This document shows, in pieces, positions 3,819 to 56,416 of a stretch of 64,000 nucleotides of DNA. The position numbers were made by a program, and so were the translations under genes. The stretch spans positions 2,021 to 66,020 of IMG/VR virus record IMGVR_UViG_3300036791_000703; one strand, 5' to 3'. Each line of letters opens with the position of its first letter. The stretch's first letter is position 1. This stretch comes from a virus. Lineage: Duplodnaviria; Caudoviricetes. The notes under the pieces were generated by a model, which was not told where the DNA came from, ran no database searches, and saw only the letters and a list, made by a program, of their open reading frames with translations.

Positions 3819-5312
3819 GTGAATATCGATGTCCCAACCGAGCAGCTCGATCTATCGGATCGTTGCTGGCTCAATGGTCAGCTCGAAGCTTACACAGTCA
3901 GCGAGCCCATGTTCGCACGTCGGTCGTTCGCCCGCTATCGGCGGGTGATGCGTCCGAACATGCTGTGGGGTCGCTTCCCGCTCGAAGTGTCGAGGGCGCT
4001 GCAGTTTTTCTATCGTGACCTGATCGTCGGCAGGCGACCCAAGCTGGCGATCATGGCGCCGCCGCAGCACGGCAAGTCTCTCGCAGCAGAGGACTTTGTG
4101 TCGTGGTTGGCAGGCAAGGCACCGCATCTCAAGACGATCTATGCCTCCCATAGTGATGAGCTTGGGGTGCGGTGCAATCTCGGCGTTCAGCGCACCATGC
4201 GCTCGCCGCGCTATCAGTCGGTGTTCGAGACGACGATCGGCGACAAGGGCTTCCAGTGCAACACCGACATCGTCGAGTACGGCGGCTATGGCGGGTCCTT
4301 TCGGAACGTGACGGTGAACGGCTCGATCAATGGCATGGAGCTACATCTCGGCGTAATTGACGATCCGGTGAAGGGTCGTGCCGAGGCCAACTCGCCGGAG
4401 CTGCGCAAGAAGATTTGGAATTGGTACACCGACGACTTTCGTCCGCGCTTCGCTGCCAACAGCGGCATGCTTTGGATCATGACGAGATGGCACTTGGATG
4501 ATCCGCTTGGTCGCGCGATCGAGAAGGAAGGTGACATCAAGGTTCTCAAGTTCAAAGCCATCGCCGACAAGGATGAGCCCGGCCGCCGCTGGAAGGGTTG
4601 CCCGCTATTCCCCGCGTTCAAGCCGCTCGATTTCCTCGAAGCGCAAAGGCGCCTGATGTCGGCGGCCTCGTGGGAAGCCGAGTATCAGCAAGAGCCGTAT
4701 CTCGCCGGTGGCGGGATGTTTCCGATCGAGAAGCTCAAGGTCATTTCGGTGTTCGATCGTCATGAGATCGTCCGCTCGGTGCTCTCGGTCGACAAGGCTG
4801 GCACCCAGGATGGCGACGGCGCCCGCACCGCGATCGTGTTCATGCACCTGATGAAGAACAACTCGATCCTGATCGAGAGCGTCACCACCGGCCGTTGGGA
4901 AGCGCGCGAGCGCGAGGACATCATCAAGAAGGTCGCCGAAGTGTGCCGCTCGTCGCTTGCCGGCTTCTGCTACGACTTCGAGGTGGTGGTCGAGCAAGAG
5001 CCGGGATCGGGCGGCAAGGAGTCGGCCGAGGCGACGATCCGTAACCTGATGGGCTTCACCACCAAGGCGGTGAAGCCAGGAGCGCGGCAATCGAAGACGG
5101 TGCGCGCCGAGCCGTTCGCAGCGCAAGTGCAGGGCAACAACGTGTGGCTGGTCGCTGGCCGTTGGATACAGGACTTTCTCGAAGAGCTGGAGCCGTGGCC
5201 GTTCGGTCGAACGCTTGACCAGGGCGATGCCGCAGCGCAAGGTTTCAATCACCTGTGCGGCGGTCCAGCGTACGACCATCAATTCCGCGGGTGGCAGCCG
5301 GGGGCACCATGA
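3819..5312 (+). CDS. terL: Terminase large subunit
   Basis: Walker A MAPPQHGKS, Walker B GVIDDP, MTRWHLDD coupling motif, YQQEP, RNase H-like nuclease acidic residues (SVDKAG, EQEPGSGGK, DQGDA). Confidence 0.95.
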   Translation: MNIDVPTEQLDLSDRCWLNGQLEAYTVSEPMFARRSFARYRRVMRPNMLWGRFPLEVSRALQFFYRDLIVGRRPKLAIMAPPQHGKSLAAEDFVSWLAGKAPHLKTIYASHSDELGVRCNLGVQRTMRSPRYQSVFETTIGDKGFQCNTDIVEYGGYGGSFRNVTVNGSINGMELHLGVIDDPVKGRAEANSPELRKKIWNWYTDDFRPRFAANSGMLWIMTRWHLDDPLGRAIEKEGDIKVLKFKAIADKDEPGRRWKGCPLFPAFKPLDFLEAQRRLMSAASWEAEYQQEPYLAGGGMFPIEKLKVISVFDRHEIVRSVLSVDKAGTQDGDGARTAIVFMHLMKNNSILIESVTTGRWEAREREDIIKKVAEVCRSSLAGFCYDFEVVVEQEPGSGGKESAEATIRNLMGFTTKAVKPGARQSKTVRAEPFAAQVQGNNVWLVAGRWIQDFLEELEPWPFGRTLDQGDAAAQGFNHLCGGPAYDHQFRGWQPGAP

Positions 5313-5693: not shown

Positions 5694-5858
5694 GTGAAAG
5701 AGCGCTTTTGCCCGAAGTGCGGTCATTCGATGGAATACCATCAAGAGGATTACGACACTGGCATTATTGCCGGGTGGTCGTGCGATGGATGCGGCCACAC
5801 CGAGCGTGATGATTTCGATGATGACGATCTCACCGAACCGCCCCGTAGCGAGCGATGA
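5694..5858 (+). CDS. Small Zn-ribbon protein
   Basis: CPKCG and CDGCG motifs; start position uncertain. Confidence 0.6.
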   Translation: MKERFCPKCGHSMEYHQEDYDTGIIAGWSCDGCGHTERDDFDDDDLTEPPRSER

Positions 5859-6040
5859 GCGAGCAGCTGTCAGCGTCGGTCGGCATCGCCAGTCATGATG
5901 GCGTGCATTGGCACATCATGCTGACCTACAGCGACGGTGATGTCCTGCTCAGTGTCGCGACGTACACCGACAGGGCTGAGGCCGAAGCCGCGGCAAGGAC
6001 CTGGGCGCTGGAAAACTGCGTCCTCCCCACCAAGCAGTAA
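5855..6040 (+). CDS. Hypothetical protein
   Basis: ATGA-coupled ORF with typical codon usage. Confidence 0.6.
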   Translation: MSEQLSASVGIASHDGVHWHIMLTYSDGDVLLSVATYTDRAEAEAAARTWALENCVLPTKQ

Positions 6041-6045
6041 AATCC

Positions 6046-6381
6046 ATGGACCCGCTTGATGACTGGAAGCCGCCTGATCAGCGGTCGCCCGACGGCGCGA
6101 TCAGGTTCGACAACTGGCTGCTGATCCACAACGCGATCAACGCCTCCCTCGTGTCGCTCGGCGAACAGCCGTTCGAAACCATTCCGACCGACCTGTGGAA
6201 TCTCGTCGGCGTCGCAGTGGACGCCGCGCTGTGGGCGGAGCGCGTGAGCTGCATCGACTGCCGCACGCGGCTGTGGCCGCGTGACGTGATCCGCTGTCTC
6301 GATTGCAAGGCAACGCTGTGCGTCAACTGCGCGCCGCTGCACTTCCGATCGTTCGGTCGCGGTCATCTGCCGGAGACGTGA
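6046..6381 (+). CDS. Cys/His-rich (Zn-binding) hypothetical protein
   Basis: CxxC...CxxC...CxxCxxxH pattern at the C-terminus. Confidence 0.6.
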
Positions 6382-6403
6382 TTCTGAGAAGGGAGACTGC
6401 CCG

Positions 6404-9400
6404 GTGACTGTCCTCAGATACGCCATCATCGATCCAAGCTTTGATGGTTCTACGTTCGCCGGGCAGACCGTCTATCCCTACAACAACATCCCCACCGTCA
6501 CGCTCGATACCGTGCAGGCGCAAGCCTATCTCGATGTCGGCACCATCGTGCCGCTCAATCAATGGATTTGGCTACGCTACTGGCTGCCGGGGGCGGTGGG
6601 TCCTGTCGGGCCGCCGGGACCGGCCGGCACGAACGGGTTTCCGGGGCCGCAGGGTCAACCGGGCATCCCGGGAATCCAAGGTCCTGCGGGATCGACCGGG
6701 GCAACGGGGCTCGCTGGCCCGCCCGGTCCTCCTGGCGGCCCTCCTGGCCCTCCTGGCGTTGACGGCCCGGTTGGCGCTACCGGCCCTGCTGGGCCAGCTG
6801 GCGCAGCTGGCGCGGCCGGTCCTACGGGCTCCGCCGGCCCGGCTGGTCCCGCTGGTCCCGCTGGCCCTCCTGGCTCCGGGTCGCAAGGTCCGATCGGTCC
6901 TGCCGGTCCCGCCGGTCCGCAGGGCGCTATCGGCCCAGCTGGTCCGGTCGGTGCGTCGGGCTCGGGCTGGACCAACATCAACGACATCCTGTCGACGCCG
7001 TTGGTCAGCGGTGAGACGCCCGACACCAAGTCAGGCAACGTGGCCGCACTCTATACGTTCGGGCAGAACCTCGGCGCCAAGGGGATCGCGCCGGAGATGC
7101 CGATTCCGATCATCATGACGGTCGGCAACCCGACGCTCATACAGGTCGATGTCAACAACACGCTCGGTTCGAACAGTGGTTTGACCCTCACCTCGGCGGT
7201 GCACTTCTTCAAACCCAATCAGCCGTTCTACCTCGTCGGGTCGGCCGGTGCGGTGCTGCCGAGCGGCGTTCAATTCAACACGATGTACTACATCACGTCG
7301 GCCAATCTGCTGGCGACGACATTCAGTTTCTCGACGACGAACAACCATGGCAGCACCGGCCTCGGTGGTGCGGCTTACTGGACGGCCGAAGGTGCGCCGG
7401 TCAACACGACAGGCGCGGTCAGCGGTCAGATTTGGATGGTGCTGTGCAATCGGGATGTGAACATCTTCATCCCGCAAGGTTCTTATCTGGGCGGCCGGTA
7501 CGGCGACAACACCGTTCCAAATCTGGCGCTGACGCCGAACGGTGTGTCGCGCATTCGGTACTGGGCTTATGGCGCCATATTCGACACCAAGGTCAGCCTT
7601 GGCACGAACGCGCAAGGGGCCATGCAGGACGCCAAGACGTGGGCGTCGAACACGATCTACGATCTGGTCAACACCACGCCGACCGAATCGAACGTGGCGG
7701 GGCTCGATGCGATCGTGCGGATGCAGACGCCGGCGAACGCCGCCAACTATTACATCGGCGCCTGGGTCACGTTCCTCGCTGGCGATCTGCAGAACGTCTA
7801 CGGCAAGCTCAACTCCGGTCCGCCGAACAATCAGTTTCAGGAGTTCAAGCGGATCAAGGCGATCAACTACTCGACCGGCGACATCACCTTCGACGGGCCG
7901 TTGAAGTGGGTCTACCTGTCGACCCTTCCGCAGCTGTACAACGCGCCGGGTAAAATCTGCGGCGGTTGCGCGCTGATGGCGCTGATGCATCCATCGTGGG
8001 ACGTTGACGTTGAGATTCGCGGCGGGCGGTGGATCGGTCAATCGACCGTGCAGAACGCGCGACGCTTCAAGCTGATCGACGCGGTATTTCAAGGTTTCGG
8101 CAATTCGCCCAGTCATGCGGCGCCGAGTGTTGCTCAGTCGTACGACTACGAGAATTGTACGTTCGGTCCCAGCAACTCGTCTGGGGTCGAGTACATGGAA
8201 GTCGACAAGATGCTGGAAGCTCTCAGCATCGACAATTGTCGAACCTCGAATCAATACTCGATCGCGTTCTTCAGTCCGTCGGTACAGATCGCCAGGATCA
8301 ACAAGTTCATCGGCGCCCATATCTCCGGTTCGCCGCGCGCGCTCAATCTGACGAATTCCATCGTTCAGGATTTCAAGGTCGGGCCGTTCATCGGCGTGAC
8401 CGATGTCTGCAACGTGCAGAACAATCACTTCAGATATTTCGACATGAACGGGCGCAACGACGACGCGCCCTATCTGCGTCCGGAGAGCACGCCCGGCGCC
8501 GGCAACGGCAACGACATGACGCTGCTGGCCAACTGGTCATTCAACGGTGGGACGCTGACGCGAAACATCGCGAATGGCAGTCCCGGCTACGGTCAGGCGA
8601 TGTGCGCCGAGATGATCGGTGCCAAATATTATATGACCGACGCCGCTAATCAGTATAAATATTTTCAGAACATGGGTTCGCCGTTCACCATCTTGAACAT
8701 GAAGATGGACGGCAGCGGCAACTTCTCGATGGACACGTCGCTGCAGGCGATCCCGGGTCGCCAGACCTCGGCGGTCGTCACCATCGACTTGACGGCCATG
8801 GTGACGTGGCCCGGACATAACCTGCCTGCCGGCACGCCGTTGGTGCTCACCACCACCGGCGCAATGCTCACCGGGTTGAAGGCCAGCACGATCTATTGGC
8901 TGATCAATCCGACCGCCAGCACTTTCCAGCTGTCGGCGACGGTCGGTGGCTCGCCGATCGCGGTGTCGGGGACGCAGAGCGGCATCCAGACCTGCTACGC
9001 CAATCCGCTGATGTTCAGGCCGCATCCATGCGGCAGCTTCACCGCCATGAGCAATCAGGGTTGCGCCTCGATCATCGACCACAACGGCGCCATCGACGAG
9101 CCGTTGTTCTCGCGGCTGAAGCGAGGGTTCGTCGGCAGGCAGACGAGTTACAATCCGGCGGGAATGCAGGCGCCCCAAGGGAAGCTGTGGGGCTACCTGA
9201 AGAACATGATCATCAACGTCGATCAGCCGGCGACGGCGGGGACGCTGAACATCAACGTCATCGGTTTTACCCAGCCCAATCTTCTGCTCAGCGTGTTCTC
9301 GCAGACCATCGACATCACTAAGCGCGGCATCCGCACCATCGGCAGCACCGGCGTGACCGGACTGCAGGGCGCCGACGCGCTGGTCGCCTACCCCGATTGG

Positions 9401-9601
9401 CTCAGCGGCATGGTGACTTTCACCTGGACCGGTCAGCCGACCGCCATGGTCAACAGCGCGGCGATCCAGCTGGAAGCGTACAGCGATCAGGGCATCACCA
9501 AGTTCGGCAACATGATGGGTGCACCGCCAGAAGGCACCAATGGCTACACGTGGCAGTACGCCCACGACGGCGTCATCCAGTCTTACGAAGCGCTACCCTA
9601 G
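6404..9601 (+). CDS. Collagen-like fibre/spike protein (1065 aa) with probable beta-helix body
   Basis: GGGAG RBS and GTG start; about 40 Gly-X-Y triplets, then a beta-rich body paralogous to 27836-31462. Confidence 0.85.
6590..6967 (+). repeat. Collagen (Gly-X-Y)n coding repeat
   Basis: About 40 GXY triplets with two short interruptions. Confidence 0.9.
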
Positions 9602-9605
9602 TTAA

Positions 9606-9680
9606 GGGCACGGCCGCGCAGCCGTGCGTTTCCTCCCTGACTTGGCGCCGATAACCGGCCAATCTGTCGGCGCCCTTTTT
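9606..9680 (+). ncRNA. SuhB/MmgR (alpha-r8)-like small RNA
   Basis: Hairpin GCACGGC/GCCGTGC (9608-9627), single-stranded TTTCCTCCCT (9629-9638), then GGCGCCGA/TCGGCGCC hairpin plus T-tract. This is the MmgR-type architecture with its anti-SD decamer. Confidence 0.7.
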
Positions 9681-9696
9681 CCTGACGGAGGAACGC

Positions 9697-10599
9697 ATGA
9701 GCCTCGCCTTTGACGCAGCCCGCCGCTCGGTTGATCCGACCGGCACCTCGAAACTGCGCGGCAAATTTCGAAGCGATCTGCAGCTGCGGTTACGCATGCT
9801 GAGAGCCCAGATGCGGGTCGCGATAGTGGAGCATGATGTTCTTGCGTTGGGTCGCGGCGGCATCATGTCTTACCACCCGCCGGACGTACGCCTGCGCGCA
9901 TTCACGCATTGGCTTGAGGTCGCCGTCGCGAGCCTCGTCGCCGGGCATTGGGTGCGCGAGTACATCGTGCGTGCGTGCGAAGCTGGTGTGGCGGCAGCGG
10001 TGAAGGAGCTGGGGCTAACCATCACCGTTGCCGCCCATCAGGCAAACAACTTGCTCGAAGAGCAGACGGTGAACGAGATCGCTGGCATCGGTGACGCGGT
10101 GATCCAGCAGGTCACCCGCTGCGCCATGGTGGTGATCCGTCGCGGCATGAAGGCGCCGAAAGCCTACGGGTTGCTGGCGTCGACGTTCGATAAGGTGGCG
10201 CTGTCGCGCACCAAGGCGCTGGCCGACATCGCGGTGGTGACCGCGTTCAACCATGCTAAGCTCGACACCTACGAGGCAGCCGGCATAACGGAGGTTGGAG
10301 TTGACCCAGAAATTCATCCAGGGACCGTACGGCCCCATACCGGTGACGCAGCCCGGAAATTCAACCGTACGACTGTCAGGCGGCGCGGTGCTTGGTCAAA
10401 GGCCAAGGCAGTTGGTGTCCGTACAGCCGGGGACCAAAAAGTTTGCATCTTCTGCGAAGAGATCGCCGAAGGCGCTCCCTACACGACCGATGAGGCGCGG
10501 GAGCTGATCCCAGCTCACCCACATTGCAGATGCAGTTTCTTTCCGTGGTACGACAAACGCTTTCGTCGTGACAGTTCATTGGCTGGCGGGCTGTCATGA
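9697..10599 (+). CDS. Head morphogenesis protein (MuF / SPP1 gp7 family)
   Basis: C-terminal TAGDQKVCIFC...IPAHPHCRC motif; GGAGG RBS. Confidence 0.85.
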   Translation: MSLAFDAARRSVDPTGTSKLRGKFRSDLQLRLRMLRAQMRVAIVEHDVLALGRGGIMSYHPPDVRLRAFTHWLEVAVASLVAGHWVREYIVRACEAGVAAAVKELGLTITVAAHQANNLLEEQTVNEIAGIGDAVIQQVTRCAMVVIRRGMKAPKAYGLLASTFDKVALSRTKALADIAVVTAFNHAKLDTYEAAGITEVGVDPEIHPGTVRPHTGDAARKFNRTTVRRRGAWSKAKAVGVRTAGDQKVCIFCEEIAEGAPYTTDEARELIPAHPHCRCSFFPWYDKRFRRDSSLAGGLS

Positions 10600-10649
10600 T
10601 CCGGGTGTAATGAGAGCCTGCCGACAATTGGTGAACAGGGAGAAAACAA

Positions 10650-11213
10650 ATGCAACCGTTTTTGGCGATGATCTTCCCGGTAGGTGGTGGAGGCGGTCAG
10701 GGTCCGGTCGACCCGGGATACGGCGTGCCGGGGTGGCCGGCGCACCCGATCGCTCCTGGCGGCCCTCCCCCGGGCACCTGGGGCGGCGACTCGCCATGGC
10801 CCGGCTATGCTAGGCCGCCGATGGCGCCGGGCGGGCCGCCGCATCCCGGCGGCCCTGGCGGCCCCGGTGGTGGCGCGCCGCCGCATCCCGAGCACCCGAT
10901 TCCGCCCAACGTCTGGCCGGAGCCTCCGGGTGGCGGACCGCCCCCGAATCAAGGCGGTAAGCCGCCGCACGTCGAACATCCGATCCCACCGACGGTGTGG
11001 CCGAACCCGCCGCAGCCGGTGCCGCCGCAGCCGCCATGGTGGCCTGGACATCCCGAGCATCCGATCCCGCCGATCGTGTGGCCCGAGCCGCCGCCTCCTC
11101 CCGGCACGCTGATCGAGTGGAAAGCGGCATGGTCGCCGCAGACCGGATGGGTCGTTGTCGGCATCCCCAACGTGGATCACGCGGCACCGGCGGCAGCCGC
11201 CGCGAAGAAGTAG
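10650..11213 (+). CDS. Pro/Gly-rich repeat protein
   Basis: GGGAG RBS; repeated (P/V)EHPIPPxVWP units. Confidence 0.8.
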   Translation: MQPFLAMIFPVGGGGGQGPVDPGYGVPGWPAHPIAPGGPPPGTWGGDSPWPGYARPPMAPGGPPHPGGPGGPGGGAPPHPEHPIPPNVWPEPPGGGPPPNQGGKPPHVEHPIPPTVWPNPPQPVPPQPPWWPGHPEHPIPPIVWPEPPPPPGTLIEWKAAWSPQTGWVVVGIPNVDHAAPAAAAAKK

Positions 11214-12347: not shown

Positions 12348-14240
12348 GTGAGATATCAGGTCCTCGACCCCAACTTCAGCAAGGGTAACCTCGGCGGGAA
12401 TCTGATCACGGTCATCGACGGCATCCCCACCGTCACCATGACGGAAAAGCAGGCGTCGTATTGGCTCACCCAGGGCGCGGTGTTGCCGCTCGGCGCTGCC
12501 GGTCAACTCGATTATCAGCTGGCCGGTCCCAATCTCGTGGTCGCCGCGCTCGGCATCGACGTGCCGAACTTCCACCGGATGATAAACTTCCCGACGGCCG
12601 CTCCGGACCTGTCGGTTGCTTCGCCCGATATCGGAACGCCGCTCTGTCTTCAGGTGATCCGTGCGCTCGGTGTCGACTGCGCTCCACTGGCGATCGATAC
12701 GCTCGCCCTGCATCAGGTCTGCCAGCTTGGCGGCGTGGGGATGGAGGTCACGTCACCGGACTTCACGAAGCCGCCGCTGTGCGGCATGTACTACAAGGTC
12801 ACCGCGATCGGGATGGCCACGGCATCGCCCGCGATCGGTGCCCCGGCGGTTCGTCAGTTCGCGCTGTGCGTCGCGACGCCGTTGACGGTGGGATCGCCGG
12901 ATGTCGGCGTCACCACGGCGCCGACCCTGACTGCGACGGCATGGGCGCCGCCGCAGCTCGCCGGTGCCTCGGCAGCGCTGTTCGCTGATTTCGCCGGCAA
13001 CAACTTTGTGGTCAATAACTCGCTATACAACACCTTGGCCAGTTGGCTCACGGCGCTCGGTGGAGCGTATTCCCGCGCCGGGGTGGCGAGCTACCTCGCC
13101 GGTGGCATCTTCAACACGGCTCCGGCCAACACGCCGCGCTATCCGACCGATCTCGCCGGCATTCCACTCGGGCTGCGGCTGACCGGGCCGGTGACCAACC
13201 TGATGCCGCATTCGGAATACGACAGCACGGCGCCATTCTCGGCTAGCGGCGCGACGTTGACGCCGAATGCCGCTGCAGCCCCCAATGCCGCCGCCACGAT
13301 GACGGCAGCGTCTTTCATTCCGACGGCTGTCAATACCACGCATAACGTCGCCTTCTCCGCCGGGATCGGGACGCAGACTTCTGGCAACATCTACACCTAT
13401 GCGATTGCAGTCCAGCCAATTGGGCCGAACTATTATTATGCTTATATCGATCCAAGAAATGCATATACCGAATATACCGTCTTCAGCTTCGCCGGTGGCG
13501 TTGCCACGGTTTCTCTGAACGTCGGTGGTGCCGTCGGTTTCGTTATTCCGCTCGCCAATGGCTGGTTCATCTGCGGCACAACGATCACCAATCCGATCAC
13601 CGGCAATCGCACCGGTTCGTGGAACGTGTGTACTGCCACCGGCGGACGCACGGTTCTTTGCGATGGCGTGTCCGGTTGGAACCTGTGGGGACAGAACTAC
13701 ACCCAGACCAACTTCCTCGCCGATTACGTGCCAACTGCGACTGCCACCGCGACCCAGGCCGGCGATCTCCTGTACTGGCCGACCTCGCCGTGGCTGGCAG
13801 CGAGCGGCACCTGGGCGCACAGCGGTTCGGCGGCGCTGGCGTTGGTGACGCAATACGTGATGGGCACCGACGACAACACCGGCAACTTCGTCGCTGGCGC
13901 CTCGATGCTCGGCCGGCTCGGCAGCGGCAACAACAGCATCGGCTTCGGCGGGCAGTCGTCGCTCGTCAACTACGCGGCCAGCACCATCATCAGCAAGTAC
14001 AAGTACGCTTGCATCTACGATGTGCCGACCACGCTGCAGCGCGTGGTCGATGTCAATGGCGGCAGCAGCGAGAACAACACCTTCGATTACACCGGCACCG
14101 GGACGGTTCGATTCACCTACGGGAATATGCGGACGCTGAACCCAGTCTCGCCGCTCTACGGCAACGTGAAGACGCTTGCCTACTGGCCGCAGGCGGCGAC
14201 GGTGGCTCAAGCCGTTTCAATGTTAGGAACGCTCCAATGA
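12348..14240 (+). CDS. Head spike/fibre-like virion protein
   Basis: GAGGAG RBS and GTG; VxSP repeats, then a YSRAGVASY...PANTPR...GLRL...TNL motif typical of phage head-fibre domains, with a beta-sandwich-like C-terminus. Confidence 0.7.
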   Translation: MRYQVLDPNFSKGNLGGNLITVIDGIPTVTMTEKQASYWLTQGAVLPLGAAGQLDYQLAGPNLVVAALGIDVPNFHRMINFPTAAPDLSVASPDIGTPLCLQVIRALGVDCAPLAIDTLALHQVCQLGGVGMEVTSPDFTKPPLCGMYYKVTAIGMATASPAIGAPAVRQFALCVATPLTVGSPDVGVTTAPTLTATAWAPPQLAGASAALFADFAGNNFVVNNSLYNTLASWLTALGGAYSRAGVASYLAGGIFNTAPANTPRYPTDLAGIPLGLRLTGPVTNLMPHSEYDSTAPFSASGATLTPNAAAAPNAAATMTAASFIPTAVNTTHNVAFSAGIGTQTSGNIYTYAIAVQPIGPNYYYAYIDPRNAYTEYTVFSFAGGVATVSLNVGGAVGFVIPLANGWFICGTTITNPITGNRTGSWNVCTATGGRTVLCDGVSGWNLWGQNYTQTNFLADYVPTATATATQAGDLLYWPTSPWLAASGTWAHSGSAALALVTQYVMGTDDNTGNFVAGASMLGRLGSGNNSIGFGGQSSLVNYAASTIISKYKYACIYDVPTTLQRVVDVNGGSSENNTFDYTGTGTVRFTYGNMRTLNPVSPLYGNVKTLAYWPQAATVAQAVSMLGTLQ

Positions 14241-17200
14241 ACGTCGCCGCGCCCAACATTCTGCGCTTCCCGCGGGCGTGGTTCGATTCCACGCGCGACA
14301 GCTTCCAGAACTTCCTCGCCGGCTTCGGTGTGCCCGGTCGCGACAAGGCGGTGTCGCAGTTCTGGGCGTACTATCCACTCACCCTCGATCAGCTCGAAGC
14401 CGCCTATGCCAGCGACTGGGTGGCGCGCAAGATCGTCGAGATACCGGCGTTCGACGCGACGCGATCCTGGCGGCTGTGGCAGGCCGACAAGGAGGATCAG
14501 AAGAAGATCGAGGAGGCCGAGCGCAAGTACAATCTGCAGCGCAAGCTGCTCGACGCGTTGATCAAGGCGCGGCTCTATGGCGGCGCTGCGATCATCCTCG
14601 GCGTCGATCAGGGCACGTTCCAAGAAGAGCTGCAGATCGACAAGGTCGGCAAGGACGATCTCAAGTTCGTCCATGTGGTGAGCCGCTATTCGCTCTCCGC
14701 CGGCCCGACGGTCAAAGAGATCACCTCGCCGTGGTACGGCCATCCGACCTACTATCAACGCGCCAACACGGTGACGGTGTCGGCGCCCGGCGGCGTCGAG
14801 CCGATCGGCGAGCCCACCATGGGGCAGCTGCCCGGCGACATGCTCTACATCCACCCGAGCCGCGTGATCCGTCTCATCGGGCTCGACTATCCCGATATCG
14901 AGCGGGCGCCGGACGCTTGGGGTCTCACCGTGCTGCAGCCGGTCGCCGATGCGCTCAAGGCCGCCGGGATGGTGACATCGTCGATGGCGACGATGATCGC
15001 CGAGGCCAAGCTCGACATCATCAAGGTGCCGGCGCTGACCGCGAAGATGGGGACCGCCGAGGGCACCCAGAACGTGCTCAGCCGGTTCATGCAGACCAAC
15101 GTCGCCAAGTCGAGCATCAACGCGCTGCTGATCGACAAAGAGGAGGAATGGGAGCGCCATCAGCTGCAGCTGTCGAACTACGACAAGGTGCTCAGTTCGT
15201 ACTTCCTCTTGTGCTGTGCCGCCGCCGATGTGCCGGCGACGCGCTTCATGGGCCGCGAGCCCGCAGGTCAGAACGCCACCGGCGACAGCGACACGCGCAA
15301 TTACTACGACCGTCTCGCGTCGGATCAGAAGGTGCGCCAGACGCCAGCGCTGCGCCCGCTCGACGAGGTGCTGTTGCGCTCGACCTTTGGCAGTCGCGAC
15401 GACGCATGGCGCTACGACTGGAACGCGCTGTGGCTGATGTCGGATGCCGAGAAGGCCGATGTCGAATTGAAGAAGGCACAGGCGCATCAGGTCGATGTCA
15501 ACGCTGGTCTCATCTCTCCGCACGTGCTGCAGATTGGCCGCGAGAATTCACTTGTGGAGTCGGGCTTCCTGTATCCGGGCATCGAGACTGCTATCGAGGA
15601 GGAGGCTGATTGGGACGCCGAGGAAGGCGTACAGCAAGCGCGCACCAAGGGAATGACCGATCCCAACGACCCTGATGCGATCGAGCATGCGGCGAAGATG
15701 GGCAAGAAATACGGCAACATCGATCCGAACGATCCGAAGACGATCGCCGCCAAGGCCAAGGCGCTGCCGAAACCGCCGCCCGGTGGCGGCAAACCCAACG
15801 GTGGGGGAAAGTCGAATGGTGCCGCGCGCGACGCGCGCAATCCCTTTCGCCGTCTCGCGCGCGACGCGCCGCCGTCGGTAGTCTTCACTCCCGAGCTGCA
15901 CCCGCACGATCCCAAGACCGGGCAGTGGGCAACCACGGTCACCGGCGATCCGTTGCAGATGAATCCCGAGGTCGCCACCGTCGGCGGCGACGAATGGAAT
16001 CAGAAGACCGGGGCGCGTCTGGAATTCGAGTATGCGCGCGTCAAGCCGGTACTCGACAAGCTCGCCAGTGATCTGGTCGAGGGCCAAGCTGAAGACACGC
16101 CCGATGATCCCGACGAGGACGAGGAGCAGCCCTATACGCCAGAGAGCTGGGATGAGCTGGGCGACTCGCAGCAGGAGGAAGCCAAAGAGAAATGGATGGA
16201 GGCCACCTACAGCGATTACGAGGACAGCGAAATCCAGAGCCAAATCGACAGCGGCTATCTGCTCGAACAGGGCAAGCGCGAGGCGTTGCAGGATTGGAAG
16301 GATGCGCCGACCAAGCATTCGACCACGAGCGGTGAAACGCTCGAATGGCCAGACTGGGCGAGCGAGGCGGTCGACGAGGTGATGGAAGAGCATGCCGAGG
16401 CCGGCAAGCGCATTCGCTTCACCAAGGATCAAATCCTCAAGGCGTTGACGATCGATGCCGGTAAGTACGACGAGTTCGGTGGCGACGGCAGCAGCGATCC
16501 CGATGTCGACTTCGACGACAGCGAGCTGACCGATCCGGCCGGCTACGATCCGAGCGAGGTATTCCCTGGCTTCGAGAAGCTGGAGCCGTCGAGCTTCCTC
16601 AAGGAGGACGAGCGCGACGACATCCGGAAGGCGATCACCGACGCGTTCAACAAAGAGGGCGAGAGCAAAGCCGACAAGCTCGATGCGTCCGATTACATCG
16701 ACAAGAGCACCATTCAGGATTACCAGAGCGAAAGTTGGGATCAGTATTCGGACAAGCAGAAGTGGGAATACGCCGAGCAGTATCTTGAGCTTGGCGAGCA
16801 AGAGAGCCATCGCGAAACGCCAGAGCCGACCCAGGTGCTGATGCCGGCGCACTTCGATCCGATGGGCAACCCCAACGTTGATGACGATTACAAGAACGAT
16901 GCCGACTACAAGAACACCAAGTCACTCGGCCGGGCGATGTCGATCGCGCGTGCGGTGCAGGTGAGCAAAGAACGCGACATCGACACCGACGAAGAGACCG
17001 TCCGCGACATGGACAGCACTCTGTGGCGCGATTGGAAGTCGTCCTCGACATCACCGAATGGCAAGCTGCTGCAGCTCGCCATCGCCGACGAGCTTGGTGG
17101 TCGCCTGCACGAGGGGCGCATCGGTGATCCGGCGGAGGTCGAGAAGACCAAGCGCGAGGGCAACAAGTGGGGCGGCTACGACGCAGTGAAGGCGTACATC

Positions 17201-17608
17201 CGCGGCAAGTGGGAGACCACGCAGTTCCTGCTCGACAAGGCCAACATGCAGACCGTCGGGTTGTGGCGTGGCGTTGGCCTCGATGTCACGAACGAGCGCA
17301 CCGAGACTGTGACCGCGGGTCCGCACGTGCCGGCATTCAGCAAGCTGCCCGACACCTCGATCCGTCGCAACGGTGCGGCGTCGTGGACGATCAAGCGCTC
17401 GGTCGCCAATAACTGGTCGCGGGTGACGATCCGTGCCCAGGTGCCGCGCACTGCGATCGTCTCGGTGCCGGTCTATGGCCAGAACGTCCACAACGAGCAC
17501 GAGGTGATCGTCGCTGGCACGGCGTGGAAAAATTGGGATGCGTGGAATGGTCCGGCGCCATCCTTCGAAGATGTTCCAATGGCGTTGCACGCGGGAGCCA
17601 CGCCATGA
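14237..17608 (+). CDS. Portal protein (DUF1073/HI1409 family) with C-terminal acidic region and ADP-ribosyltransferase-like domain
   Basis: AYASDWVARKIVEIPAFDATR, ARLYGGA, IHPSRV, ADVPATRFMGREPAGQNATGDSDTRNYYD. C-terminus has LWRG / ASWT / EHEVIV. Start reassigned to ATG 14237 (ATGA overlap). Confidence 0.9.
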   Translation: MNVAAPNILRFPRAWFDSTRDSFQNFLAGFGVPGRDKAVSQFWAYYPLTLDQLEAAYASDWVARKIVEIPAFDATRSWRLWQADKEDQKKIEEAERKYNLQRKLLDALIKARLYGGAAIILGVDQGTFQEELQIDKVGKDDLKFVHVVSRYSLSAGPTVKEITSPWYGHPTYYQRANTVTVSAPGGVEPIGEPTMGQLPGDMLYIHPSRVIRLIGLDYPDIERAPDAWGLTVLQPVADALKAAGMVTSSMATMIAEAKLDIIKVPALTAKMGTAEGTQNVLSRFMQTNVAKSSINALLIDKEEEWERHQLQLSNYDKVLSSYFLLCCAAADVPATRFMGREPAGQNATGDSDTRNYYDRLASDQKVRQTPALRPLDEVLLRSTFGSRDDAWRYDWNALWLMSDAEKADVELKKAQAHQVDVNAGLISPHVLQIGRENSLVESGFLYPGIETAIEEEADWDAEEGVQQARTKGMTDPNDPDAIEHAAKMGKKYGNIDPNDPKTIAAKAKALPKPPPGGGKPNGGGKSNGAARDARNPFRRLARDAPPSVVFTPELHPHDPKTGQWATTVTGDPLQMNPEVATVGGDEWNQKTGARLEFEYARVKPVLDKLASDLVEGQAEDTPDDPDEDEEQPYTPESWDELGDSQQEEAKEKWMEATYSDYEDSEIQSQIDSGYLLEQGKREALQDWKDAPTKHSTTSGETLEWPDWASEAVDEVMEEHAEAGKRIRFTKDQILKALTIDAGKYDEFGGDGSSDPDVDFDDSELTDPAGYDPSEVFPGFEKLEPSSFLKEDERDDIRKAITDAFNKEGESKADKLDASDYIDKSTIQDYQSESWDQYSDKQKWEYAEQYLELGEQESHRETPEPTQVLMPAHFDPMGNPNVDDDYKNDADYKNTKSLGRAMSIARAVQVSKERDIDTDEETVRDMDSTLWRDWKSSSTSPNGKLLQLAIADELGGRLHEGRIGDPAEVEKTKREGNKWGGYDAVKAYIRGKWETTQFLLDKANMQTVGLWRGVGLDVTNERTETVTAGPHVPAFSKLPDTSIRRNGAASWTIKRSVANNWSRVTIRAQVPRTAIVSVPVYGQNVHNEHEVIVAGTAWKNWDAWNGPAPSFEDVPMALHAGATP

Positions 17609-20767: not shown

Positions 20768-21742
20768 ATGTTCGGTATCGGCCACAACAGCGGCATGTTT
20801 CTTCGCGACATGCCCAACGAGCAAGCCGCTCTGAGCTTTCTCGTTTCGCAAATCACTTACATCGAACCAACCGTCTACCGGATAAAATATCCAGAACTGT
20901 TTTATCGTGAGTTAGTGCCGGTAGATTCCACTGGTACTGAATGGGCTAAGAGCATCACCTTTTTCAGTATCGATCAGGTTGGTGCCGCGGATTGGTTTCA
21001 CGCCCAGGCCGCTGATATCCCGCTCGCTGATGTGACGCGTGCCAAGCACGAGGTTGCGATCGAGATGGGGGCCATCGGCTATCGTTATAATACGGAGGAG
21101 CTGGCGCAAGGGATGATGATCCCGAACTTCAGCCTTTCGACCGAGCGCGCATCAGCAGCGCGTCGTGCTTCGGAGGAGTTTCTGCATAATATCGCCATCT
21201 ACGGCAATACCCAAAAGAGCTGGCATGGTTTGATTAACAGCCCTGGTATTCCGGTTATCAATACCCCGCATACCTGGGCTTACGACATGGCGCAAGCGCC
21301 GCCGCTGGTCCAGAACCTGATGAACGATGTCAACTTCGCGCTGACCAACATCTGGCAGTCGACCTTGGGCATCGAGATGTCGGACGTGGTGCTGTTGCCG
21401 TTCTCGGCGATGAGCCAGATCGCGATGGCGCAGCTGCCTGCCACCTCGATGAACATTCTGCAGTGGATCAAGCAGAACAACATCGTCACCCAGCAGACCG
21501 GCCAGCAGATCGAAATCCGTGCGGTGCGCGGCCTCGATACCGGTGGCGTCTCGGGGAACGGCCGTATCGTCGCATACAAGCGCGATCCGGAAATCATCAA
21601 GATGCACGTGCCGATGCCGCATCGCTTCCTGCCAGTGTGGCAGCGCGGGCCGCTCGTCTATGACGTGCCCGGCATCTTTAGAGTCGGCGGCCTCGAAATC
21701 CGTCGGCCGGCGACCATGCGCTACGTCGACGGCGTGTGCTGA
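20768..21742 (+). CDS. Major capsid protein (DUF2184, HK97 fold)
   Basis: SQITYIEPTVYRIKYPEL, DIPLAD, GYRYNTEEL, GLINSP, GGLEIRRP; AAGGAG RBS. Confidence 0.9.
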   Translation: MFGIGHNSGMFLRDMPNEQAALSFLVSQITYIEPTVYRIKYPELFYRELVPVDSTGTEWAKSITFFSIDQVGAADWFHAQAADIPLADVTRAKHEVAIEMGAIGYRYNTEELAQGMMIPNFSLSTERASAARRASEEFLHNIAIYGNTQKSWHGLINSPGIPVINTPHTWAYDMAQAPPLVQNLMNDVNFALTNIWQSTLGIEMSDVVLLPFSAMSQIAMAQLPATSMNILQWIKQNNIVTQQTGQQIEIRAVRGLDTGGVSGNGRIVAYKRDPEIIKMHVPMPHRFLPVWQRGPLVYDVPGIFRVGGLEIRRPATMRYVDGVC

Positions 21743-21765: not shown

Positions 21766-21792
21766 AGGCCGCATCCCGCGGCCTATATTTTT
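21766..21792 (+). terminator. Intrinsic terminator after the capsid gene
   Basis: GGCCGC-ATCCC-GCGGCC followed by TATATTTTT. Confidence 0.6.
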
Positions 21793-39560: not shown

Positions 39561-41477
39561 ATGGGTACGACCCCCGTCTTCGGCTTGCAATTTATTCAGC
39601 AAGATGATCAGGCGATGCCGGTCATAGGTGCTAATATGGACGTTATCGGAATTATCGGCCCGTCGTCCACCGCCGACCCGGAGATTTTTCCGCTCGATAC
39701 GCCGGTCCTCTTCTTCTCCAACGATACACTCCTGCTTTCGCACCTTGGGTCCGACGGCTACATTCCTGATGCAATCAACGGCATCAATGCGCAGCTGGCG
39801 GACTTCCAGATCGCGGCGCAGATCGTGATCGTGCGGACGGCCTATGGCGACAGTCTGGTCTCGGAGACCGAGACGCTGCAGCAGACCATCGCGCGCATTA
39901 TGGGCGACAGCGTGCTCGGCACCGGGCTCTATGCGTTCCTCAAGGCGCCCAACACGCTCTATTGCACGCCGCGCATCATCGTTGCGCCCGGCTACACCGG
40001 ACAGATGGCGAACTCGCTCGATACCCTGACGATCGAGAATGACGGCGTCGGCTACATCCCGAACCAGACCTACGGCATCACCTTCGCGCTCGGCAACGGC
40101 GAGCAGAACCTGACAACGTCAGTGCTGCCGAAGGGGCATGCGGTCGCCGACAACAACGGCCACATCGGCGAGCAGGAGCTGTTCATCGACAGCTGGGGCG
40201 CGTGGTTCACGGTGGCGCCGGTGGCGACGCTGCCGCCGCCCGACGGCACCCCGGCGCCTGCCTCGCCCGCGCAGGGCCAGATCATCTTCAACGCTCAGCC
40301 GGGTGTCGGCACCAACATCGCGATCAGCTCACAGCCAGTCACTTTCATCGCCCATGGTGGGACGCCCGCTGCGTATCAGGTCGCGCTCGGCGTCAATCTC
40401 GACGAGACGCTCGACAACCTCGTCGCCTACTTGATGGGGACCACGGCGCAGGCCGATCCCAATCTCGGGCTGTGCACCTACGTCAAGGCGGCGTCGACCT
40501 ATCTGAGCCTGTTGATCACCTCGAAGGCGACCGCGGCGGCAGCCAACGACATCACCGTCACCACCAACGTCACCGGCGCCCAGTGCTCGCCGACGCTGCA
40601 GGGTGGCGCCGACGCTGAAATCTCGACCCAGGCGACAGTGCTCTGCACGATGGCGCTCGGCGCCAATCCGGTGTGCGCCAACATGACCGGCGTGCTCGAT
40701 ACCCTGATCGGCCATGGCATCGTCGAGAGCGCCGGCACTTCGATGATCGCCGACGAGAGCTGGCGCACCACGCTCAACAGCCAGCGCCTCATTGGGCTGT
40801 CTGGTGGCGTCAAAATTCAGGACCCGTACTCCGGCGACATCGTGGTGATGCCGTTGGCGCCGCGGATGGCGGGCGCGCTGGTCGCCGAAGATTTCAGGAC
40901 CGGCTACCCGTTCCACTCGTGCGCCAACCGCGCCATCCAGGGTATTGTCGGCCCGGCGCGCTCGATCGCGTTCTCGCTCACCGATGGTGAGACCGAGGGA
41001 CAGGTGCTGCTTGGTGCCAACCTCGGGATCATTGCGCGCGGTCTGATCGGGGTCGAGAGCGCGATCTCGTCCGGCGGTTTCATCCTGATCTCGACCGACA
41101 ACATGGGGGATGATTCGCTCTGGCAAATGTACAACGTGAAAAGAGGGCGCGACTATATTCATCTCTCGCTGATGCCCGCGTTGCGCACCTATCTAGGCCG
41201 CTCTAACATCGATCGTCAAACTGTTACCAACGTCGAGGAAACCATCGCGTCGTTCCTCGCCCAGCTTACGGCGCTTCAGCAAATCCTCGGCTACAAGGTC
41301 ACCTTCAGCGGCAGCCTCAACAGCGCGGAGGAGATCAGGCTCGGGCATCTCACCGTGAGCTTCGCGGCCGAAGAGCCGCCGGTGCTCAAGTTGATCACCA
41401 CTATGTCAGCTCGCTACAAGCCGGCGATCGACGCCATGGTCTCGCAGCTCGCCGAGCAGCTGGTGTTCAGCGGCTGA
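39561..41477 (+). CDS. Contractile tail sheath protein (P2 FI-like) with nested insertions
   Basis: VIGIIG....AD...FPLDTPV, TGLYAF...PRIIVAPG, S.ANR.I.GI, NSAEEIRLG.L. Confidence 0.92.
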   Translation: MGTTPVFGLQFIQQDDQAMPVIGANMDVIGIIGPSSTADPEIFPLDTPVLFFSNDTLLLSHLGSDGYIPDAINGINAQLADFQIAAQIVIVRTAYGDSLVSETETLQQTIARIMGDSVLGTGLYAFLKAPNTLYCTPRIIVAPGYTGQMANSLDTLTIENDGVGYIPNQTYGITFALGNGEQNLTTSVLPKGHAVADNNGHIGEQELFIDSWGAWFTVAPVATLPPPDGTPAPASPAQGQIIFNAQPGVGTNIAISSQPVTFIAHGGTPAAYQVALGVNLDETLDNLVAYLMGTTAQADPNLGLCTYVKAASTYLSLLITSKATAAAANDITVTTNVTGAQCSPTLQGGADAEISTQATVLCTMALGANPVCANMTGVLDTLIGHGIVESAGTSMIADESWRTTLNSQRLIGLSGGVKIQDPYSGDIVVMPLAPRMAGALVAEDFRTGYPFHSCANRAIQGIVGPARSIAFSLTDGETEGQVLLGANLGIIARGLIGVESAISSGGFILISTDNMGDDSLWQMYNVKRGRDYIHLSLMPALRTYLGRSNIDRQTVTNVEETIASFLAQLTALQQILGYKVTFSGSLNSAEEIRLGHLTVSFAAEEPPVLKLITTMSARYKPAIDAMVSQLAEQLVFSG

Positions 41478-42037: not shown

Positions 42038-42628
42038 ATGGCTGAGACCATTCTCACGCTTGACCAAGCCAACATGTTCTGCGGGCGCGAACCCACGGAC
42101 GTGAATAACGGTCTGTACTTGGAGCTGACCGAATTCAAGCTGCCGGCGATGAACGACCAGTTCGTCGACCACCGCGGCGCTGGCGTGCCGATCTCGATTG
42201 AAGTCGATACCATCTTCGCCAAGCTGGAGTCGACGTTTCAGTTGATCGGCTGGAACGTCCAGACCGCGACGCTGATCGCGTCGTGGATGGCCGAGCAGAA
42301 TGTGTTCTGGATTTACGGGCTGGCGCGCGATCGGATGACCGGCGAGTCGTCACGCGTCACCGCGAAGATGCGAGGTAAGCTCGGTCTTGCCGATCCGCAG
42401 AACTGGAACAGGTCGGGTGCCCAGCATTGGAATTACGCGATCAAGGGCATCATCTCCTACGACCTCGTGATCGGAAACACCTCGGTGTACAGCTGGGATT
42501 TTTTCGCCAACAGATTTGTCGTTGGCACCTGGGATCGCAATTCCGACACCAACGCGATCCTCAACATTCCGATCGCCACCGCGGCGCCGATCTTGGTCGG
42601 TCCGGTCATCGAGCCGGGGACGCCGTAA
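42038..42628 (+). CDS. Tail tube protein 2 (P2 FII-like)
   Basis: GGAG RBS and ATG at 42038; tandem paralog of tube 1. Confidence 0.9.
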   Translation: MAETILTLDQANMFCGREPTDVNNGLYLELTEFKLPAMNDQFVDHRGAGVPISIEVDTIFAKLESTFQLIGWNVQTATLIASWMAEQNVFWIYGLARDRMTGESSRVTAKMRGKLGLADPQNWNRSGAQHWNYAIKGIISYDLVIGNTSVYSWDFFANRFVVGTWDRNSDTNAILNIPIATAAPILVGPVIEPGTP

Positions 42629-56105: not shown

Positions 56106-56360
56106 ATGATGAACCCTGGAATTCCTGAAGAGGTCGGCTCGACCACGCGAACCATGATCGATGCGCTCAAGGGTCAACCCGCGGTGCTCGCTTTGACGCT
56201 CGCGAACATCATGCTCCTGATCTTCATGTTTTACGCGCTCAGCGGCGCAGCGAAGTCGCGCGAGCTGTTGGTGGGGCAGATTCTGCAGAACAGCAACGCC
56301 ATTCACACCATGCTGCAGCAGCGTGCTGTTGCCTGCCCGGATGCCGGGCCAACGCTGTGA
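56106..56360 (+). CDS. Single-TM holin-like protein
   Basis: Met-Met start, one TM (VLALTLANIMLLIFMFY), last gene of the late operon. Confidence 0.55.
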   Translation: MMNPGIPEEVGSTTRTMIDALKGQPAVLALTLANIMLLIFMFYALSGAAKSRELLVGQILQNSNAIHTMLQQRAVACPDAGPTL

Positions 56361-56389
56361 GTGCATGACATCGAGGTCCCTCCGGCCCT

Positions 56390-56416
56390 GCCGCCCCTTC
56401 GGGGGCGGCTTTTTTT
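56390..56416 (+). terminator. Intrinsic terminator ending the late operon
   Basis: GCCGCCCC-TTCG-GGGGCGGC-T7 at the convergence of + and - gene blocks. Confidence 0.9.

Follow-up and report, generated by a model that had tools for sequence, protein, structure and literature searches.

The short stretch between the fibre-like and MuF-like genes of this virus probably encodes a diverged, phage-borne member of the alphaR8 (SuhB/MmgR) family of small RNAs, derived from the 3′ end of the upstream message. We infer from the sequence and from modelled pairing that the RNA is expressed, and that its anti-Shine-Dalgarno seed would act on ribosome-binding sites, including that at the start of the MuF-like gene.

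The window, meaning here the whole 64,000 nt stretch of DNA that was analysed, makes up most of a 66,020-base IMG/VR virus record, a linear sequence from soil metagenomes that is estimated to be 71% complete. The genes recognised in it are those of a tailed phage with a contractile tail, and include genes for a protease and a cement protein as well as the following:

3819-5312: terminase
5855-6040, plus strand: gene X, 61 aa
6046-6381, plus strand: Cys-rich ORF, 111 aa
6404-9601, plus strand: fibre-like ORF, 1065 aa, with collagen repeats, matching PHROG tail-fibre families
9599-9601: stop codon of the fibre ORF
9697-10599, plus strand: MuF-like ORF (head morphogenesis), 300 aa, matching phrog_758
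within 13619-17608: portal
20768-21742: major capsid protein
39561-41477: tail sheath

The RNA element occupies the 3′ untranslated end of the fibre ORF, 7 nt beyond its stop codon and 17 nt ahead of the MuF-like start. No deposited phage has a capsid protein more than 44% identical to the one encoded here; the best match is in a Stenotrophomonas phage (43.7%), and the nearest relatives include Rhizobium and Aminobacter phages (about 41%). Blastn comparison of the region, and of the element alone, with deposited phages gave no match.

An initial annotation, made from the letters of the window, described a hairpin, a conserved motif, GACTT and a GC hairpin ending in five T residues, lying between the fibre stop codon and MuF, with a GGAGGAA ribosome-binding site at 9687. 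All of these parts are present where it placed them:

9608-9627, plus strand: hairpin 1, a 7-bp G+C-rich stem GCACGGC/GCCGUGC (9608-9614 with 9621-9627) and a 6-nt loop
9628-9643, plus strand: single-stranded core GUUUCCUCCCUGACUU, in letter-for-letter alignment with the RF00519 consensus, and made up of G plus TTTCCTCCCT (9628-9638) and GACTT (9639-9643)
9629-9638, inside the core: anti-Shine-Dalgarno 10-mer seed UUUCCUCCCU
9644-9680, plus strand: intrinsic terminator, a 10-bp stem (9644-9653 with 9665-9674), an 11-nt loop, then C and UUUUU (9676-9680)
9687-9707, plus strand: MuF start region, with GGAGGAA (9687-9693), ATG (9697-9699) and the first codons

Hairpin 1 takes the place that in alphaR8 RNAs belongs to a short, weak 5′ helix. 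Both hairpins are predicted by RNAfold, and the second was flagged by a terminator scan; it is among the few clear intergenic hairpin-plus-T sites on the plus strand, the others being at 21766-21784 and 56390-56409. The former of these is a clean hairpin with a T-run directly 3′ of the major capsid gene, followed after 12 nt by GGGAGAAA and then the ATG of the next ORF. At 56360-56415, the stop codon of an ORF is followed by C-rich GGUCCCUCCGGCCCU and a strong terminator (8-bp stem entirely of G+C, TTTTTTT). Taken alone, the fold of the 101 nt around the element is unexceptional (z = -1.69; 11 of 200 shuffled sequences fold as well). In the terminated RNA the seed is predicted to be largely exposed, with a mean probability of being unpaired of 0.82 for the copy in the window, and of 0.82, 0.90 and 0.79 across the three sequence variants described below.

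When 301 nt were compared with 4227 Rfam families, RF00519 (suhB, 'Makes More Granules Regulator RNA') matched at 9609-9688 over the full length of the model (positions 1-77 of 77) with a score of 29.6 bits and E = 2e-4; for this one family against the 66-kb record, E = 1e-5. The score is below the curated gathering score of 41 bits, and a scan of the window at the Rfam gathering thresholds gave no match at all, so that the comparison with the suhB model that the initial annotation had proposed returned a full-length match at one setting and nothing at the other. The loss of score was traced to hairpin 1, the terminator loop and one skipped consensus position. The core GCGUUUCCUCCCU-GACUU is identical to the RF00519 consensus, and 16 consecutive core letters agree with it apart from the skipped position. 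Among the traits of the family, the 10-mer seed with its GCG and (A)GACUU flanks, the short 5′ helix and the Rho-independent terminator are all present, and the score is short of the gathering score (29.6 against 41 bits). Elsewhere in the record RF00519 matches twice more, weakly, at 13.4 and 12.5 bits, and both matches were judged to be noise; the better of them, at 56360-56415, is not significant (E = 0.145).

Among 14 control genomes, only that of Caulobacter had a match above the 41-bit cut-off, and matches with E ≤ 0.01 occurred in two of the 13 non-alphaproteobacterial controls (Synechococcus and Thermus). One alphaproteobacterial metagenome-assembled genome (MAG) of 6.1 Mb carries a copy of 67.4 bits and three others of 28.7, 26.7 and 26.2 bits, indicating that diverged siblings below the threshold exist in cells, consistent with the four to five copies per genome reported for Caulobacter and Bradyrhizobium in PMC1273637. 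A cellular alphaR8 variant (L146, 2350-2440; metagenome loci L130-L145) has a longer 5′ hairpin, CACCGUCG/CGGCGGUG, together with CCCUCACUU; L146 belongs to the MAG of an uncultured alphaproteobacterium, in which a canonical copy of 67.4 bits is present as well. Searches of metagenome and genome collections with a pattern specific to the phage clade returned 16 and 1 stretches, respectively, all of them of this cellular type, and no further phage relative.

The family is well represented in phages that carry its motif. The pattern GTTTCCTCCCT(N)GACTT was found in at least 119 stretches of IMG/VR and, among the matches listed, 100 of the 112 distinct stretches combine the motif with a stable downstream hairpin and TTT. 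RF00519 was run on 117 of the 119 motif-bearing records listed; 108 of these have a match with E ≤ 0.01 and 70 score above 41 bits, and a match was obtained for every one of the 40 that are at least 90% complete. The records were chosen by exact motif, and the counts show that the motif marks true family members, not what share of all phages carries one. Among the loci examined (L004-L122), a high-scoring example reaches 77 bits (G071:C1:16617-16695), and genomes bounded by direct terminal repeats are also found above the cut-off (e.g., G019, G032, G072, G075 and G102). Three copies stand in tandem at 8231-8622 of one genome (G083), and there are several in another (G059). Among near-complete genomes other than proviruses, of which 15 were inspected, copies adjoin genes for terminase, DNA polymerase, primase, exonuclease, endolysin, ligase, portal and head-tail adaptor proteins, and in three of the 15 an integrase gene lies beside the copy or within about 1.3 kb of it (L153, 36-518; L154, 1339-2340; L163, 256-1203). 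Several provirus records have theirs close to the end of a contig. Host alphaR8 genes may serve some temperate phages as integration sites, in the way that tRNA genes serve others. In a MAFFT alignment of 100 phage copies, neither the terminators nor the optional A were correctly aligned, and it was set aside as a basis for a covariance model.

Copies are also present in deposited phage genomes, one of them from a cultured phage of Bradyrhizobium:

OP596613.1, about 16066-16146: Bradyrhizobium phage ppBeUSDA76-1 (cultured), 62.8 bits
'Microcystis phage Mwe-JY08': 62.8 bits
Bradyrhizobium phage BDU-MI-1: 37.0 bits
Bradyrhizobium phage ppBdUSDA122-1: 32.0 bits
PP395640.1, about 42319-42402, and KY940711.1, about 99723-99823: positions of alphaR8-like RNAs in deposited phage genomes

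The deposited phage records with copies have no RNA feature annotated at these sites. The score of Mwe-JY08 is odd for a cyanophage, and its host may be an alphaproteobacterium.

Judged by sequence, the likeness to SuhB/MmgR noticed in the initial annotation looks like real homology, since the RF00519 match is full-length and the phage copies form a continuum from 77 to 18 bits. The core, the helix and the terminator all speak for it, and the score under the gathering threshold speaks against; we file the element as a diverged, phage-borne variant of the family, short of a certified member.

A search with the MuF-like protein identified four related viral loci (L123-L126), and in three of them the element lies directly 5′ of MuF: L123 (MuF 98% identical), L124 (81%) and L125 (69%). 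The distant L126 (MuF 27% identical) has no element at the locus. RF00519 scores are 31.0 bits for L125, 29.6 for L123 and 17.0 for L124, in which CCCU is replaced by CCCC and the U-tract is poor. The relatives keep the seed, GACUU or AACUU, and both hairpins, the stem of hairpin 1 being 8 bp with one G-U pair; loops and flanks diverge while the core is kept. Across the three distinct clade sequences, 96.3% of stem cells are paired, with one pair changed on both sides and four on one side. Covariation in the clade (four sequences, three of them distinct) is not significant, as 163 of 500 shuffles score as high.

The upstream gene is more variable. In L124 and L125 (two of the three element-bearing related contigs) it differs from that of the window: a homologue of gene X abuts the RNA directly, and the 111-aa Cys-rich ORF and the fibre gene (6046-6381 and 6404-9601), which are found in the window and in L123, are absent. 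The window and L123 thus carry an extra two-gene cassette (6046-9601) between gene X and the RNA. The start of the RNA is no more than about 10 nt from the preceding stop codon in each of the three contexts, although the sequences upstream show no relationship to one another. A scan of the plus strand confined to sigma-70-like promoters, as distinct from phage or alphaproteobacterial types, over 8500-11000 and over 1 kb upstream, found none. Given the lack of a sigma-70-like site and the start close to a stop codon in three unrelated upstream contexts, the element probably lacks a dedicated promoter and is produced as the 3′ end of the upstream message, whichever that is.

The initial annotation had also suggested that the phage may tune its own genes, many of which use GGAG-type ribosome-binding sites. 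Many do, but this carries no weight as an argument, being true of any genome that uses Shine-Dalgarno sites. Complements of the seed with at most one mismatch occur twice in the window against 1.79 expected, which is chance level. One sequence, AGGGAGAAAA at 10637-10646, is complementary to the seed at 9 of 10 positions and lies 4 nt 5′ of the ATG of the ORF that follows MuF (10650); sites of this kind are no more numerous than expected by chance.

The suggestion itself gained some support from duplex and rank tests, in which the best-matched site in the window is the translation start of MuF. In the minimum free energy structure predicted for a read-through RNA, 9616-9636 pairs with 9687-9707 through 18 base pairs and hairpin 1 opens, the partners on one side being the seed, the 3′ arm of hairpin 1 and the last part of its loop, and on the other GGAGG, the spacer AACGC, the AUG and the first MuF codons. 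The predicted duplex between the 23-nt region and the MuF start has an energy of -28.9 kcal/mol, which falls in the 0.19% tail of 9109 plus-strand windows, and no start region taken from a rough gene list, one that missed MuF and included doubtful ORFs, does better than -26.7. Relative to local controls, pairing in the window gives z = -3.1, the third strongest of 116 phage elements, with -1.66 for L125 and -0.82 for L124; the median complementarity of the 116 elements to their downstream sequence is at control level (z = +0.275).

Comparison among phages points the same way. When 76 distinct phage alphaR8 regions were matched to the MuF start of the window, the clade RNA regions ranked 1, 2 and 4; they ranked 1-3 against the MuF start of L124, and 1, 3 and 4 against that of L125. 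Their fit to MuF starts is about three standard deviations better than the median, indicating that the clade-specific stem arm is fitted to the MuF start of the clade. The modelled cost of forcing the seed to be single-stranded is 7.5 kcal/mol in the window, where one of 200 shuffled tails does as well, 2.1 kcal/mol in L124 (12/200) and 0.3 kcal/mol in L125 (128/200). On these models MuF is the best candidate target within the phage, and purely cis masking of MuF is not evenly conserved across the clade.

The preferred reading brings these observations together. The RNA would be transcribed as the 3′ end of an upstream late message (that of the fibre gene here, of gene X in relatives) and would end at its own terminator, giving a product of about 75 nt, whose 5′ end might arise by cleavage immediately 3′ of the stop codon. 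By analogy with the host family, the anti-Shine-Dalgarno seed would pair with ribosome-binding sites with the help of Hfq, and the terminated RNA with its seed exposed would correspond to the state in which SisA and MmgR act. The best-matched phage site is the MuF start region 17 nt downstream, where the 3′ arm of hairpin 1 could extend the match over the spacer and AUG, and translation of MuF is probably kept low by the RNA, acting in cis on read-through messages, in trans, or both. The intact family seed could also act on host targets of alphaR8 RNAs, that is, mRNAs for nutrient uptake and carbon storage. Mimicry of a host regulator of carbon storage, as put forward in the initial annotation, may be inferred by analogy with the roles described for the family in PMC7143759 and PMC12559287. 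Points against the preferred reading are the sub-threshold score, the atypical hairpin 1, the uneven pairing with MuF across the clade and the 17.0 bits of L124; moreover, some complementarity to a Shine-Dalgarno site is to be expected of every such seed.

Two other readings accept the alphaR8 ancestry and differ over where the RNA acts. It may be a trans-acting sibling that represses the host alphaR8 regulon, or soaks up a sponge of the CrfA type, its position beside MuF being incidental. This is rather unlikely, although the seed and its flanks are intact, host alphaR8 RNAs are described as acting in trans through the same seed (PMC12559287), copies adjoin unrelated genes in the 15 near-complete phage genomes, and the median element shows no more than control-level complementarity to what follows it (z = +0.275). 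Set against these are the failure to find a sigma-70-like promoter, the persistence of the RNA next to MuF in the clade even when the upstream gene changes, and a stem arm that fits the MuF start better than at least 72 of the 76 other phage copies. The converse proposal, to which we give a low probability, is that a leaky terminator and an anti-ribosome-binding-site sequence act in cis only, attenuating transcription after the fibre gene and masking the MuF start, with no trans function left. Minor head proteins of the MuF type are needed in low copy, which would suit such an arrangement, as would the lack of a detected sigma-70-like promoter and the predicted 18-bp read-through pairing of 9616-9636 with 9687-9707 that opens hairpin 1, with a gain of -7.5 kcal/mol (1/200 shuffled tails as good). 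That gain, however, is marginal in L124 and nearly gone in L125, yet the seed, GACUU or AACUU, and both hairpins are kept there; masking needs neither the full 10-mer nor the ACUU flank, and in the terminated RNA the seed is predicted to be exposed.

The unexceptional 101-nt fold (z = -1.69), the chance-level count of 10-mer complements and the score under the Rfam cut-off would all fit a mere Rho-independent terminator of the fibre gene, preceded by a pyrimidine-rich spacer whose likeness to the alphaR8 seed is accidental. This is disfavoured and very improbable in view of the full-length match (E = 1e-5 per record), the 16 core letters that follow the consensus apart from one skipped position, the conservation of the core in relatives whose loops and flanks diverge, and the motif, hairpin and TTT shared by 100 of the 112 distinct stretches among the matches listed. 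Phages that integrate at tRNA genes carry the 3′ part of the gene, and an element of this kind could in the same way be the remnant of an attachment site in a lineage that integrates into a host alphaR8 gene. The integrase genes beside or within about 1.3 kb of copies in three of the 15 near-complete genomes (L153, L154 and L163), and the copies near contig ends in several provirus records, fit that idea in general. For the copy in the window its probability is negligible, as this copy is whole, including its 5′ helix, and sits inside the head-gene module of a 66-kb record (itself 71% complete) in which no tyrosine integrase (PF00589) was found.

A broader proposal, possible although we hold it to be doubtful, is that phages of Alphaproteobacteria widely carry alphaR8 siblings, which act as auxiliary regulatory genes and take over the Hfq-dependent nutrient-uptake and carbon-storage programme of the host, and that in this myophage clade the RNA has been re-tailored into a riboregulator of MuF. 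Such a takeover could include TonB-dependent receptors, which might also block superinfection. In rhizobia and Caulobacter, genes for transport and carbon storage are under the control of this family, and if the phage copies work, they would clearly exemplify the borrowing of a core host riboregulator by a virus. A copy without a detected promoter, matched to a neighbouring head-assembly gene, suggests how a borrowed RNA might be turned to control of the phage's own genes. The number of copies is sufficient for study, and the cultured carrier, a Bradyrhizobium phage, makes the idea testable at the bench.

Within their coverage, full-text literature searches returned no description of alphaR8 RNAs in phages, and an earlier mention, for example in the phylogenetic survey of the family by Lagares 2016, is possible. 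That survey is cited in PMC12559287 for 'vertical and lateral gene transfer'. In the parts of the family literature that the searches covered, 'phage' refers to Q-beta and Hfq, to transduction or to enterobacterial sponges. By the account in PMC12559287, the direct mechanism of an alphaR8 RNA was worked out only in 2025.

The described members of the family include the SuhB element, MmgR of Sinorhizobium meliloti and SisA-D of Caulobacter crescentus (Vogt 2025, PMC12559287; Corbino 2005, PMC1273637). They are characterised in the same sources by a short 5′ helix, an unstructured conserved core containing the 10-mer, a terminator, a putative promoter and multiple unlinked copies per genome. SisA represses the mRNA of a TonB-dependent receptor through the 10-mer in an Hfq-dependent manner, with compensatory mutations as proof, and the sponge RNA CrfA antagonises alphaR8 RNAs (PMC12559287). 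PHB accumulation is held down by MmgR, which in turn depends on the nitrogen and carbon state (PMC7143759). The element in the window resembles these RNAs, as described in PMC1273637 and PMC12559287, in its 5′ helix, its single-stranded UUUCCUCCCU with GCG and (A)GACUU flanks, its terminator and its length of about 75-80 nt. It differs from the cellular members in being phage-borne, inside a head and fibre gene module, and in scoring 29.6 bits against 41; its 5′ helix is 7 bp and G+C-rich, where theirs is a weak 4-bp GCCC/GGGC helix, and a stem arm is matched to the start region of the neighbouring gene. Each cellular member is reported to have a putative promoter (PMC1273637), whereas the sigma-70-like scan found none for the element in the window.

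AbcR1 and AbcR2 (alphar15) of the Rhizobiales are also Hfq-dependent RNAs with anti-Shine-Dalgarno motifs. Their second hairpin and terminator form a module that is also found in the suhB model (del Val 2012, PMC3346310), and Rfam places them with suhB in clan CL00108. Their 5′ part and seed are different, and the best clan-resolved match of the element is to suhB, over its full length.

Phages and prophages of enterobacteria encode small RNAs as well, DicF among them. The enterobacterial sponges AgvB and AsxR are phage-encoded RNAs that plug into the Hfq network of the host (PMC12559287), as a phage-carried RNA may do here. Neither duplicates an RNA family conserved in the core genome of the host, whereas the element in the window is a recognisable sibling of such a family, one that occurs throughout the host class.

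In its presumed origin, the element resembles small RNAs released from the 3′ ends of messages. CpxQ and SroC are RNAs of this kind. GadF, DinR and FlaX are 3′ portions of mRNAs, end at the terminators of those mRNAs and need no separate promoter (PMC12559287). Compared with these, processing of the element is suggested by the absence of a detected promoter and by a start only a few bases past the stop codon.
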